DNA from: Escherichia phage RB69
Sequence record: NC_004928.1
DNA: 64,000 nucleotides
Reading direction: 5' to 3' (one strand)
Shown here: positions 48,068-52,526 of the stretch, piece by piece
Position numbering within the stretch: position 1 is the first letter of the stretch
Layout: each line of letters begins with the position of its first letter
The notes under the pieces: model-generated
Database searches by the model: none
What the model saw: only the letters and a program-made list of their open reading frames with translations
What the model was told of the DNA's origin: nothing
Translations under genes and position numbers: made by a program

Positions 48068-48319
48068 TTAGAACTTGATTTCTATCCAATGACCATCACG
48101 TTGGTCGTGATTAATTTTGTACTGAAAGCCGTTATCACGAAGCCATTGACCGACTTGTTCAGTTATAGTTAAATCGTTCTTTGACGGGTAGTACGTGAAT
48201 TGTGTCTGACCTTTGTCAGCGGCTTTCTCTGCCATCGCAGAGAAGTTAGTAATAAAATCACTCAACAAATTAGCTTTAGTGGCCAGAGCCCTTTCTCTTA
48301 ATTCCTGTGCAAAACTCAT
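48068..48319 (-). CDS. hypothetical protein
   Basis: 83-aa ORF between rnlB and hoc. Confidence 0.5.
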   Translation of the reverse strand: MSFAQELRERALATKANLLSDFITNFSAMAEKAADKGQTQFTYYPSKNDLTITEQVGQWLRDNGFQYKINHDQRDGHWIEIKF

Positions 48320-48516
48320 TTCTTCACCTTTTTGTTAATCAAACGTTTACGGTATACAACTTTTTCTTTTGCTTTAAACTTTGACCGAGCTGTCTCGGCT
48401 TTAGTCCATAGTAATCCAACTTCTTTAGGTTGTAAACCGATTTTTTGAGCAATTTCTACGAATGAAAATCCCGCCTCATGTAATGTATAAACTTCAACTT
48501 CAGCTCTCATAATCAA
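48316..48516 (-). CDS. small protein with helix-turn-helix-like segment
   Basis: 66 aa; AGFSFVEIAQKIGLQPKEVGLLW resembles an HTH; basic C-terminal tail. Confidence 0.5.
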   Translation of the reverse strand: MIMRAEVEVYTLHEAGFSFVEIAQKIGLQPKEVGLLWTKAETARSKFKAKEKVVYRKRLINKKVKK

Positions 48517-48574: not shown

Positions 48575-48606
48575 CTTTAAAAACGAAGAAAGGGGCCGAA
48601 GCCCCT
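48575..48606 (-). terminator. rho-independent terminator after hoc
   Basis: Minus strand GGGGCTTCGGCCCC followed by TTTCTTCGTTTTT. Confidence 0.7.
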
Positions 48607-48611
48607 TACGA

Positions 48612-50027
48612 TTATGGATATGTATAGATGATACCAGTTTCCAAAGCAGTTTTATGGATGATGTATCCATTACGTGATTCTTGAACATCAACTTCTGGAT
48701 AGTCTTTCATCATCTTCTGAAGAGTGTAACGATGCAGGTAGTATTTACTATCTGGATCTTCAGTTTTCCAATCTTTACCTTCTTCAGTCATTTTTTGGAT
48801 TTCATCCATAACCCACCAACCGCACCAGATGTAAGCTGAAGTACGATGTGGAAGAGGATGAACATAAGGTAGTTCACCTTCTGGCTCAATTGGAGTCTGT
48901 TCAGTAATAACAACTTCAGCGGTTGAACTAATTGTCTTTGAAGTATAGTTATCTTTAGTTAATACTGCTTCAACTTTAATTGTATGAGTACCAGCTGAGG
49001 AGGTATCAATACTGTAAGTATTAGTAGAATTACTTTCTGCTACATTGTCTTTCTTCCAAGAATACACAATATTAGTATCACCTGGAGCACCAGTAACAGA
49101 TGCTGTTAAAGTTGCAGTTCCGCCAACAGTAGTATTAACTGATGGCGGAGATAAAGAAATGGTGGCACTATTAAATGTAGCATTATTAGTTACTACTGTT
49201 GCTTCTGCTGAAATTTCTTTTGTAACATAATTTGTTGCAGAAACAGATACGGTGCATTTAAGAGTTTTACTTCCGACCTCGGTTGGAGTGAATTTATACG
49301 TAGCAGAAGTTGCATCCAGAATATTACTGTCATCCATTGACCATTGGAATGATGTAGTAGCACCTGAAGGTGCACCAGAGACATTTGCAGTTAAAGTAAT
49401 AGGAACACCAAAGACCGTAGTCGGAGACTCAGGCGTAATTTTTAGTGTTGAAGAATTAGCCTTTTTATTTACAGTCAAAGAAACCGCTGATGATTCTACT
49501 GTTTTATCAACGTAATCAGTTGCAGTCACTGTGACAGAACAAGTTATAGACTTAGTTCCTTCAGATGTTGGTGTATATTCAAAGGTTGATTGCTTTTGAC
49601 CATCAACAGCGACCCCGTCAACTTTCCATGTATAAGCAATAGCAGCACCACTAGGTTGATTGCTTACATTAGCAGTGAATGTTGTTGCTGTTCCAATTTC
49701 TACTGCCGCCGGAGAAGCCGGAGTAACAGCGACGGTAGAATTATTTTCTTTCTTATTAACAGTGATAGTTGTTGACGCTTCAGCTATTTCCGGATCTCCT
49801 GCGGAAAGTGTATTGGTTGCAACCACTTTAATTTTTTTTGTTCCTGCCGGAGAAGCAAGAGTATAATCCATTGTAGCAGCCGTAGACTCCTGTGCTATAT
49901 CATCTACAGTCCAGACGTATGTAATAGTACCATCTGGAGTTTCACCTGCAGGTGTAGCAGTGAATGTTTGTGAACCTCCAATAACCCCTGTAGGAGTTAA
50001 AGGAGATAACGTGACAGTGAATGCCAT
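48612..50027 (-). CDS. hoc: highly immunogenic outer capsid protein Hoc (Ig-like repeats)
   Basis: 471 aa; four tandem Ig-like segments of about 95 aa and a C-terminal domain YIWCGWWVMDEIQKMTEEGKDW typical of Hoc capsid-binding region. Confidence 0.88.
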   Translation of the reverse strand: MAFTVTLSPLTPTGVIGGSQTFTATPAGETPDGTITYVWTVDDIAQESTAATMDYTLASPAGTKKIKVVATNTLSAGDPEIAEASTTITVNKKENNSTVAVTPASPAAVEIGTATTFTANVSNQPSGAAIAYTWKVDGVAVDGQKQSTFEYTPTSEGTKSITCSVTVTATDYVDKTVESSAVSLTVNKKANSSTLKITPESPTTVFGVPITLTANVSGAPSGATTSFQWSMDDSNILDATSATYKFTPTEVGSKTLKCTVSVSATNYVTKEISAEATVVTNNATFNSATISLSPPSVNTTVGGTATLTASVTGAPGDTNIVYSWKKDNVAESNSTNTYSIDTSSAGTHTIKVEAVLTKDNYTSKTISSTAEVVITEQTPIEPEGELPYVHPLPHRTSAYIWCGWWVMDEIQKMTEEGKDWKTEDPDSKYYLHRYTLQKMMKDYPEVDVQESRNGYIIHKTALETGIIYTYP

Positions 50028-50036
50028 AAGTTATCC

Positions 50037-50705
50037 TTATTTTAATGTTACGAAAGAAGAATTACGAGTTTCACGAATTAGAACTGATCCATCGCGATTA
50101 ATATAATAAATTAAGCTAAATAATGTTTGGTGAGCAGAAGCATGCACAAAACTCGTTGGGTGAGATTTCCAATCTGGGGTTTCGGCTATCCATTGATAAA
50201 TCCACCAAGGAACAGTAACATATCCTGGGCCTTTGCCTAATTTAATGAGTGTAGGACTAAAATTTTCAGGCAGAACAAAATTTACTTCTTTATTTACTTC
50301 TGGCTCAGGCTCTTTTTCAGATTCAACAACCTGAGTAATTGCTTCTTCGAATTTATCATGGTCGAATTCTTTTTCTTGTTCGACAACTTCTAATACTTCA
50401 ACTTGTTCTGTTGGAGAATCAAACAACAGAATAGCTTCTTCTTTAACTTCTTCGTTGGTGAAATTAACACCGTCCACATCATCTGCGGCAGTAATTAAAT
50501 CAGTAATAGATAATCCATCAGTTTCAGGTAATGGTTCATCAGCCAGTGCGTTAAGAGCTTCTTCGATATCAATAACAATATTATCGAACGATTTTGTTTT
50601 CTTAACACTAATGCCAAATTGTTCTGCATATTCAAACAGTTTAGCTTTAGCTTCCTTTTTATCAGAAAGAGCACGTAACTCTTCAATATAGTCTTTATCG
50701 ATCAT
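50037..50705 (-). CDS. inh: Inh-like protein (inhibitor of prohead protease), by synteny
   Basis: 222 aa acidic protein between hoc and uvsW as T4 inh. Confidence 0.65.
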   Translation of the reverse strand: MIDKDYIEELRALSDKKEAKAKLFEYAEQFGISVKKTKSFDNIVIDIEEALNALADEPLPETDGLSITDLITAADDVDGVNFTNEEVKEEAILLFDSPTEQVEVLEVVEQEKEFDHDKFEEAITQVVESEKEPEPEVNKEVNFVLPENFSPTLIKLGKGPGYVTVPWWIYQWIAETPDWKSHPTSFVHASAHQTLFSLIYYINRDGSVLIRETRNSSFVTLK

Positions 50706-50718
50706 GGTATTTCCTCAT

Positions 50719-50726
50719 TATAAATA
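50719..50726 (+). promoter_or_regulatory. late promoter TATAAATA
   Basis: Exact TATAAATA 30 nt upstream of uvsW. Confidence 0.65.
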
Positions 50727-50755
50727 TAACTATATTTATTACATGGTAATTTGAC

Positions 50756-52270
50756 ATGACTGACATTAAAGTACATTTTTATGATTTTAGTCACGTGCGC
50801 ATTGAATGCGACGAAAGTACGTTTTACGAACTTCGTGACTTTTTTAGCTTTGAAGCTGACGGGTATAAATTTAACCCAAAATATCGCTATGGGCAATGGG
50901 ATGGTAGAATTCGACTTTTAGATTACAATCGTTTGTTACCATATGGACTTGTAGGACAAATAAAAAAGTTCTGTAACAATATGAGTTATTCTGTATGGAT
51001 TGACCCTAAAATCTTTGAGACCGAAGACCTTACCAGGGAAGATTTTGACGCGTGGCTTTCTAAACAAGAAATTTATTCAGGCAACGCCAAAATCGAACCA
51101 CATTGGTATCAAAAAGATGCCGTATATGAAGGTCTGGTTAATCGTCGTCGAATTTTAAACCTTCCGACATCAGCAGGTAAATCACTAATCCAAGCACTTT
51201 TAGCTCGATATTATCTAGAGAACTATGAAGGTAAAATTCTCATTATCGTCCCTACAACAGCATTGACAACCCAAATGGCTAATGATTTTGTTGATTATCG
51301 CTTGTTTAGTCATTCGATGATTAAGAAAATTGGCGGTGGTGCTGATAAAGCGGACAAATCTAAAAACGACGCTCCAATTATTGTTGGCACATGGCAAACG
51401 GTAGTTAAGCAGCCTAAAGAATGGTTCTCTCAGTTCGGTATGATGATGAACGATGAATGCCACTTAGCAACAGGCAAAAGTATTTCTTCAATCATCTCAG
51501 GATTAAATAATTGCATGTTTAAATTCGGTTTATCTGGCTCATTAAGAGACGGAAAAGCCAATGTAATGCAGTACGTAGGTATGTTCGGCGAAATCTTCCG
51601 TCCTGTTAGCACGTCTAAATTAATGGAAGACGGACAGGTAACTGAGCTTAAGATTAATAGTATTTTCCTTCGTTATCCAGACGAATTCGCCACCAAATTA
51701 AAAGGTAAAACATACCAAGAAGAAGTTAAAATTATTACCGGACTAAAACGTCGTACAAAGTGGATTGCTCAACTTTCGGTAAAATTGGCTAAGAAAGACG
51801 AGAACGCCTTTGTAATGTTTAAACACGTTACACACGGTAAAGAAATATTTGAAGCTATTAAAGAGCTTGGATACGAAAAAGTTTATTACGTATCAGGTGA
51901 AGTTGATACTGAAACACGTAACGCTCTTAAAGTCATGGCAGAAAATGGTAAAGGCATTATTATTGTCGCATCATATGGAGTATTCTCTACCGGTATTTCA
52001 GTCAAGAATCTTCATCATGTTATTTTTGCTCATGGTGTTAAATCAAAAATTATCGTACTTCAAACCGTAGGTCGTGTGCTTCGTAAGCACGGTTCTAAAG
52101 CTGTTGCTACAGTTTGGGATCTCATCGATGACGCAGGTGTAAAACCTAAATCATTAAATACTAAAAAGAAGTATACTCATCTTAATTACTTGTTAAAACA
52201 CGGTATTGATCGTATCCAACGTTACGCTGATGAGAAATTTAACTATGTAATGAAAACAATTAATTTATAA
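50756..52270 (+). CDS. uvsW: UvsW DNA helicase (SF2)
   Basis: MTDIKVHFYDFSHVRIECDESTFYELRDFFSFEADGYKFNP...; Walker A PTSAGKS; matches T4 UvsW. Confidence 0.95.
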   Translation: MTDIKVHFYDFSHVRIECDESTFYELRDFFSFEADGYKFNPKYRYGQWDGRIRLLDYNRLLPYGLVGQIKKFCNNMSYSVWIDPKIFETEDLTREDFDAWLSKQEIYSGNAKIEPHWYQKDAVYEGLVNRRRILNLPTSAGKSLIQALLARYYLENYEGKILIIVPTTALTTQMANDFVDYRLFSHSMIKKIGGGADKADKSKNDAPIIVGTWQTVVKQPKEWFSQFGMMMNDECHLATGKSISSIISGLNNCMFKFGLSGSLRDGKANVMQYVGMFGEIFRPVSTSKLMEDGQVTELKINSIFLRYPDEFATKLKGKTYQEEVKIITGLKRRTKWIAQLSVKLAKKDENAFVMFKHVTHGKEIFEAIKELGYEKVYYVSGEVDTETRNALKVMAENGKGIIIVASYGVFSTGISVKNLHHVIFAHGVKSKIIVLQTVGRVLRKHGSKAVATVWDLIDDAGVKPKSLNTKKKYTHLNYLLKHGIDRIQRYADEKFNYVMKTINL

Positions 52271-52295: not shown

Positions 52296-52526
52296 ATGGT
52301 ACTTGAATTTAAACAATTTTTATACGAAGCATCTATTGACGAATTCATGGGTAAAATTGCTAGTTGTCATACCTTAGAAGGGCTTGAAGAATTGGAAGCT
52401 TATTATAAGAAACGTATAAAAGAAACGGAATTAAAAGATACAGATGATATTTCTGTCAGGGATGCCTTAGCAGGTAAGCGTGCCGAACTTGAAGGCGACG
52501 ATGAGGATGCGGAAGAAGATTTCTAA
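52296..52526 (+). CDS. uvsW.1: UvsW.1
   Basis: 76-aa acidic ORF directly after uvsW. Confidence 0.8.
   Translation: MVLEFKQFLYEASIDEFMGKIASCHTLEGLEELEAYYKKRIKETELKDTDDISVRDALAGKRAELEGDDEDAEEDF

Follow-up and report, generated by a model that had tools for sequence, protein, structure and literature searches.

The 471-residue Hoc of Escherichia phage RB69: four immunoglobulin-like modules joined to a conserved capsid-binding domain

Introduction

T4 nanoparticle vaccines rely on Hoc as their main display scaffold, the adherence of phages to gut mucus depends in part on this protein, and the number of its immunoglobulin (Ig)-like domains is known to vary (PMC10385173, PMC11150434, PMC11853027). 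The hoc gene of Escherichia phage RB69 raises the question of what the additional length of one such protein consists of, where it came from, and what it could do on the capsid. This gene lies in a stretch of 64,000 nucleotides (nt) of the record NC_004928.1, which we call the window. A sequence-only reading of the window had described it as an open reading frame (ORF) of 471 amino acids (aa) coding for a Hoc about 95 aa longer than that of T4, formed by four tandem Ig-like segments and a capsid-binding C-terminus, and had seen in it a domain gain with consequences for adhesion or antigenicity. The ORF was present exactly as described (Table 1) and the length difference was also exact, T4 Hoc having 376 aa in NC_000866.

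The gene product is a T4-type Hoc with four Ig-like domains and a capsid-binding domain. We estimate at about 0.9 the probability that this five-domain protein of an RB69-like phage forms an anchored fibre with adhesive Ig modules and represents one of several modular alleles circulating together.

Results

Domain architecture of the 471-aa Hoc

The product matched the PHROG family of Hoc-like head decoration proteins (phrog_1149, E = 1.8e-138) and, in a phmmer search against chains of the Protein Data Bank (PDB), the T4 Hoc chain 5vf3_Z (E = 3.7e-142). The phmmer alignment with T4 Hoc was split into two parts, residues 1-190 of the query corresponding to T4 1-190, and residues 289-471 to T4 194-376 (289.9 bits for this second stretch). 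Around 98 residues were inserted with respect to T4 Hoc, for a net gain of 95, and a global alignment placed them in one continuous gap.

The protein was cut at conserved linkers into four modules, named A', B', X, and C', and a C-terminal domain (Table 1). The four N-terminal segments were mutually similar in the self-alignment (shuffle z from 9.8 to 24.8) and none of them resembled the C-terminal domain; X aligned to each of the three other modules within this same range, its best partner being B' (39/94 identical, 41%; z = 24.8). The Pfam models Ig_3, I-set, and PKD scored above their cut-offs, PKD matching three stretches of the protein, and the models falling within the insertion, Big_3_5 (200-271) and ICAM D2 (235-269), reached only sub-threshold scores. 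An AlphaFold2 model built on 29 homologs displayed four beta-sandwich domains over residues 1-378, with predicted local distance difference test (pLDDT) values per 10-residue block of 86-96 through residue 370 and of 75 for residues 371-380. The top Foldseek matches in the PDB were fragments of four Ig domains (Dscam1 Ig1-4, axonin-1, Sidekick-2 Ig1-4, and ICAM-5 D1-D4), and the Hoc of phage RB49 (3shs) was recovered as well. The isoelectric point (pI) was 4.72 vs. 4.74 for T4 Hoc, each Ig module having a value of 4.4-4.7; acidity has been reported for Hoc homologs (PMC10385173). The arrangement of four Ig-like segments plus a capsid-binding C-terminus is therefore supported by the alignment with T4, the internal similarity, Pfam, AlphaFold2, and Foldseek, and the extra residues constitute a fourth Ig-like domain rather than an unrelated insertion.

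As compared with T4 Hoc (376 aa; 5vf3, 8t1x, 8t9r), the window protein presents the same locus, N-terminus, anchor (98% identical), anchor tryptophans, and acidic pI, and it is likewise a string of Ig modules joined by linkers. In contrast, it carries one Ig module more (four vs. three); identity to the corresponding T4 module is only 62% for module 1 and 55% for module 2, X is 33-39% identical to the T4 modules, and C' is at most 46% identical to any of them.

Table 1. Coordinates of the hoc gene, its modules, and accompanying features in the window
Feature	Coordinates	Strand	Evidence
hoc coding sequence (CDS), 471 aa + stop: four Ig-like modules + capsid-binding domain	48612..50027	-	ORF list, PHROG, PDB-chain match
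Ig-like module A' (aa 1-93), distal fibre tip (predicted)	49749..50027	-	62% identical to T4 domain 1; pLDDT 86-95
Ig-like module B' (aa 94-189), ends in linker VSLTVNKK	49461..49748	-	55% identical to T4 domain 2; Pfam PKD 103-174
Ig-like module X (aa 190-286), without T4 counterpart	49170..49460	-	Gap in T4 alignment; pLDDT 87-95, beta strands
Ig-like module C' (aa 287-383), equivalent to T4 domain 3 but divergent	48879..49169	-	46% identical; Pfam Ig_3, I-set 290-360
C-terminal capsid-binding domain (aa 384-471)	48615..48878	-	86/88 identical to T4 Hoc 289-376; phrog_21694, E = 1.3e-41
Putative exchanged hoc cassette, 90-98% nt identical to Tequatrovirus DalCa (NC_054908.1)	48607..50206	-	100-nt identity profile
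AAGGA resembling a Shine-Dalgarno site, 6 nt before the ATG of hoc and overlapping the stop codon of inh	50034..50038	-	Read from sequence
Intrinsic terminator-like hairpin AAGGGGC-TTCG-GCCCCTT followed by T-run	48590..48607	-	Terminator scan and sequence

Conservation of the capsid-binding anchor

The C-terminal anchor of Hoc has been described as the module binding the gp23* hexamer, with a tryptophan-rich interface (PMC10385173). Residues W401, W404, and W405 of the window protein, equivalent to W306, W309, and W310 of T4, were invariant in the 29-sequence alignment A1, and the solved T4 structures 5vf3, 8t1x, and 8t9r cover essentially the same anchor sequence.

The contrast in constraint along the protein was extreme, as the anchor (48615-48878) was 98% identical in aa to that of T4 vs. 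only 46-62% for the counterpart Ig modules. The last 276 nt of hoc were 99-100% identical to those of phage PhAPEC2 and of several phages whose Ig regions gave no megablast match.

Length classes, module types, and distribution of the allele

The census of Hoc proteins comprised the best 120 clusters at 90% identity (of 893 matches) together with T4, PhAPEC2, and the window protein, and every module was typed against the modules of T4 and of the window. Lengths fell into classes about 96 aa apart: 376 aa with three Ig modules (around 81 entries), 468-472 aa with four (33 entries), and 567-570 aa with five (nine entries). The most abundant module type was A-B-C (78 entries), followed by A-B-B-C (29) and A-B-B-B-C (eight), and the type A'-B'-X-C' corresponded to the window protein and to cluster P0001. 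Hybrids were also obtained as single entries, namely A'-B'-C (P0009), A-B-B'-C (P0013), and A'-B-C (P0089), as well as two that bear X, A-B-B'-X-C' (P0002, 567 aa) and B-X-C' (P0004, 379 aa). One cluster of 376 aa, P0059, was cut into two segments only.

The Hocs of 472 and 567-570 aa (vB_EcoM_G10400, BF15, UGKSEcP1, and UGKSEcP2) resemble the window protein in having four or five Ig modules, the same anchor, and steps of about 96 aa. However, what they add is further modules of T4 type B (80-88% identity to B of T4) and not X-C', and overall they are 53-60% identical to the window protein. A conserved anchor with a variable Ig count is also a trait of RB49 Hoc (3shs), of PNJ-9 Hoc (two Ig), and of the Hoc of Serratia phage Muldoon (10 Ig) (PMC10385173, PMC11853027), although RB49 Hoc is distant (phmmer E = 2.4e-05, over the first two modules only) and differs in Ig count. 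A study of 650 homologs of the anchor domain found from one Ig-like domain (phage PG7) to 10 (Muldoon, 1174 aa) (Fokine et al., 2023; PMC10385173), and the two-Ig variant has been characterised (PMC11853027).

The allele of the window was widely distributed. In a megablast search of hoc against 50,697 phage records, 27 records covered all 1416 nt at 95.3-98.4% identity and two further ones covered 81-94% of the gene. Carriers included the Mosigvirus phages phiC120, O157 typing phages, ESh27, and LNA2, and the Tequatrovirus phages DalCa, Paracelsus (Bas36), and PYps35T. For phiC120, O157 typing phages 3/6/13, ESh27, DalCa, Paracelsus, and PYps35T, the 471-aa allele was 96-98% identical over 1416 nt, and the carriers' annotations for it were Hoc-like head decoration, PKD domain protein, and capsid whiskers protein Hoc. 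Differences among carriers were limited to point substitutions (about 2% of aa vs. P0001, and 55 nt differences vs. DalCa). Cluster P0001, the closest at 90% identity in a collection of 5.8 billion proteins, was 98% identical and had 54 member sequences. The four-Ig form is therefore real but not unusual, since the allele is found at full length in 27 phage records. A four-Ig Hoc is already known: this is a deposited and annotated allele within the published variation in Ig number. Our literature search found no paper dealing specifically with the A'-B'-X-C' allele, and phiC120, DalCa, and the length classes are not named in the portion of the supplementary text of PMC10385173 that was accessible.

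Several records of these genes showed irregularities. The hoc gene was split into two CDS in OLB35 (MH992122.1, L004 2001-3131, marked UNVERIFIED), NRG-P0074, and a20, and rnlB was split in DalCa (L005 3996-5000); these would be either sequencing errors or tolerated disruptions of non-essential genes. Some Hoc clusters (P0022, P0024, and others) were labelled "endonuclease [Shigella sonnei]" or "PKD domain-containing protein [Escherichia coli]", a sign that contigs of T-even phages have been deposited as parts of bacterial assemblies, together with some misannotation.

Probable module shuffling at linkers and probable exchange between genera

In the hybrids P0002, P0009, and P0013, the change from one type of module to another coincided exactly with the linker SLTVNKK, which is conserved. 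P0009 followed the sequence of the window up to VSLTVNKK and then continued with the T4-type TMNPQVTLTPP, whereas P0002 was of T4 type up to VSLTVNKK and then continued with ENNSAVAVTPASPA, which corresponds to B'. In P0004, MAFTVDITP was joined directly to GSPDAG, with module A deleted and the switch located at the ITP/VTP motif. The position of these breakpoints, in alleles with three, four, or five Ig modules, suggests recombination at short conserved linkers, through which modules would be gained, lost, or swapped.

Module C' followed X in every allele bearing X (the window protein, P0001, P0002, and P0004). With respect to T4, or to P0009, the allele is better described as one in which the single module C has been replaced by a two-module block X-C'. 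X was at least 90% identical only in the 29 carrier records and less than 60% identical elsewhere in a tblastn search of the phage collection, these weaker matches being ordinary B-type modules of Hoc. In a phmmer search of X against 1.84 billion cluster representatives, 2295 matches were obtained, none of them more than 45% identical and none a candidate donor; the top scores belonged to giant multi-Ig repeat proteins in which many weak stretches add up. A word-indexed protein search with X-C' alone returned a single fragment of 151 aa and missed known full-length relatives, so that it was uninformative on the origin of X.

The identity profile in 100-nt steps against DalCa displayed sharp edges. 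Identity was 90% at 50206-50107 and 94-98% from there on to 48607, a segment that comprises the last 170 nt or so of inh and the whole of hoc, whereas the flanks were 46-85% identical upstream and 59-83% downstream. PhAPEC2, a Mosigvirus chosen as comparator with a three-Ig Hoc (376 aa, A-B-C), presented the opposite pattern, with flanks 93-97% identical and nt 339-1140 of hoc unalignable. The steps in identity at the gene edges in DalCa, together with the mismatch in the Ig region of PhAPEC2, therefore support an exchange of the whole hoc allele as a cassette between Mosigvirus and Tequatrovirus, as judged from these nucleotide profiles.

Proposed function and alternative readings

By homology to T4 Hoc (PMC10385173), the anchor would hold a single Hoc monomer in the middle of every gp23* hexamer, which would amount to 155 copies per prolate capsid, and as in other T4-type Hocs the protein would be dispensable for assembly. 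The four acidic modules A'-B'-X-C' would extend outward from it in a flexible fibre that exceeds that of T4 by about one module; the fibre of the four-domain T4 Hoc measures around 180 Å (PMC10385173), and one added module would take it to roughly 220-225 Å. The Ig modules would probably bind mucus or cell-surface glycans weakly and reversibly, and would keep virions dispersed, in line with the roles proposed for Hoc, i.e., weak and reversible adhesion to mucin glycans or bacterial surfaces and pH-dependent dispersion of virions (PMC10385173, PMC11150434, PMC11853027, PMC9271167). Co-circulating forms with three, four, and five Ig modules would probably arise by recombination at the linkers between modules, and the present allele would have moved as a cassette between Mosigvirus and Tequatrovirus genomes. 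The altered adhesion or antigenicity attributed to the extra domain by the sequence-only reading is a plausible prediction.

Residues involved in glycan binding have been mapped in other Hocs. In PNJ-6, E29 and G33 of domain 1 bind fucose of MUC2 (PMC11150434), and in PNJ-9 the same ligand is bound by S183-T185 of domain 2 (PMC11853027); the change D246N in T4 is cited in both papers as altering glycan binding. Both E29 and G33 (in A') and S183-L184-T185 (in B') are present in the 471-aa Hoc. This coincidence is only a lead, as the MUC2-binding residues are shared in different contexts.

Several points weigh against the reading of the protein as an anchored, adhesive fibre. The AlphaFold2 model of the anchor was poor (pLDDT < 50), the probable reason being the near-invariance of the alignment in this region, so that the fold of this domain rests on its sequence identity to T4, and the presumed location of the 471-aa allele on the capsid comes solely from that 98% identity. 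The published binding residues were mapped in Hocs with two or three Ig domains and in other sequence contexts (PMC11150434, PMC11853027), and S183-L184-T185 is part of a conserved linker also present in T4, which says little about specificity. Neither the tblastn nor the phmmer searches revealed a donor of X, and the data fit a four-Ig form that may have arisen by gain as well as a three-Ig form that may have arisen by loss. Lastly, the ratios of nonsynonymous to synonymous substitution rates (dN/dS) vs. DalCa (0.13 for A', 0.39 for B', 0.20 for X, 0.06 for C', and 0.06 for the anchor) come from one pairwise comparison with just 55 substitutions. These ratios denote purifying selection on every module; as dN/dS was below 1 in all of them, selection appears to be preserving all four Ig modules, X among them.

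A more far-reaching proposal is that hoc is a module-shuffling locus, with joints at SLTVNKK and TITVxxK at which modules are duplicated, deleted, and swapped and whose alleles cross genera, and that X-C' is a distinct ligand-binding cassette directing the capsid surface to another glycan or another host surface. We advance it tentatively: the data do show a pattern of shuffling and of exchange between genera, and a distinct specificity of X-C' is conjectural. Alternatively, X could be only a spacer that holds the distal modules farther away from the capsid, and so changes reach, avidity, or electrostatic dispersion, and adds no ligand specificity, which we regard as doubtful but worth keeping in mind. 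The length classes do differ by whole modules, and the modules added in A-B-B-C and A-B-B-B-C are near-copies of B, as length tuning would predict; moreover, acidity is much the same in all modules (pI 4.4-4.7), in agreement with the role in dispersion put forward in PMC10385173, and purifying selection on X would be equally expected of a structural spacer. However, X is distinct from every other Hoc module (45% identity or less to anything else) and always paired with C', so that the surface exposed differs too, and the Hoc module to which binding determinants have been mapped varies from phage to phage (PMC11150434, PMC11853027).

Very improbable, and contradicted by the data, is that a segment coding for an Ig module was recently duplicated in tandem in this lineage, which would make the array novel and possibly unstable. 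The module most similar to X is indeed B', located directly upstream (the pair with the highest z, as given above), and true tandem arrays B-B and B-B-B occur in Hoc alleles of 472 and 568 aa. Nevertheless, B' and X are only 41% identical in protein, and hoc contains no long direct nucleotide repeats, the internal matches being imperfect, 12-30 nt long, and 62-100% identical. In addition, the same allele recurs in independent genome records (27-29), which belong to two genera and come from several continents, and X is under purifying selection (dN/dS 0.20). An unstable repeat expansion of recent date was also considered in its own right and rejected, as near-identical adjacent nucleotide units were not found and the best pair of modules was 41% identical in aa. 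The domain gain of the sequence-only reading stands insofar as the protein has one Ig-like domain more than T4 Hoc; a fresh expansion is unsupported, given the low identity of X to its neighbour and its linkage to the divergent C'.

That the extra length is an artefact (a wrong start, a misassembled repeat, or a non-Ig insertion), which was considered because repeat-containing genes are prone to misassembly and because the sequence-only reading had named a wrong start and an unrelated insertion as grounds for refutation, and for which no support was found, has a negligible probability, as MAFTV aligns with MTFTV of T4 Hoc from residue 1 with the Shine-Dalgarno site AAGGA just upstream, the modules are too divergent to mislead an assembler, the gene has the same 1416-nt length in 27 other records, and residues 190-286 were modelled as a beta sandwich with pLDDT 87-95.

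For the anchored five-domain Hoc with adhesive modules, which remains our preferred reading, the discovery value is small, since this is a routine deposited allele; that modules seem to be shuffled at linkers, and that the allele seems to have passed from one genus to another, are mildly interesting by-products only. They could support a small comparative study and open no long-standing question. In practical terms, the natural alleles with four or five Ig modules and an unchanged anchor could serve as ready-made longer display scaffolds, and the module types A', B', X, and C' might confer different glycan specificities on therapeutic phages against E. coli O157.

Locus and expression signals

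The hoc gene sits between inh and 24.3, on the same strand as inh, and comparison of the ORFs of the window with the T4 annotation yielded the T4 gene order, 24-rnlB-24.2-24.3-hoc-inh-uvsW; the annotations of phiC120, PhAPEC2, and DalCa were compared as well. Over the surrounding 20 kb, identity was around 98% to phiC120 and to E. coli O157 typing phage 3/6/13, all of them Mosigvirus, which makes the window an RB69-like T-even phage of this genus.

The GC-rich terminator-like hairpin listed in Table 1 begins 4 nt past the stop codon of hoc, and the records of PhAPEC2 and DalCa annotate terminators at the same site 3' of the gene. On the strand of hoc, the sequence immediately preceding inh or hoc contained no perfect copy of the T4 late-promoter motif TATAAATA. 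The nearest one (50719-50726) belongs to the + strand, opposite to hoc, and faces uvsW; it lies in the spacer between inh and uvsW (50706-50755), which is only about 50 nt long. In T4, the homing-endonuclease gene segE is located between inh and uvsW (L001 5058-5675), and the window lacks it.

Downstream of this spacer, uvsW appeared as an ORF of 504 aa (50756-52270) followed by a separate acidic ORF of 76 aa (52296-52526). The T4 reference record contains a single uvsW of 1764 nt, with noted sequence discrepancies, and phiC120 is annotated with two ORFs as in the window. On the other side of hoc, the homolog of gp24.3 (48316-48516) starts at TTG in the ORF list (MIMRAEV...), and an ATG two codons downstream gives MRAEV...; this ATG, equivalent to the start at which the homolog of DalCa is annotated (MRTEV...), is the more likely of the two.

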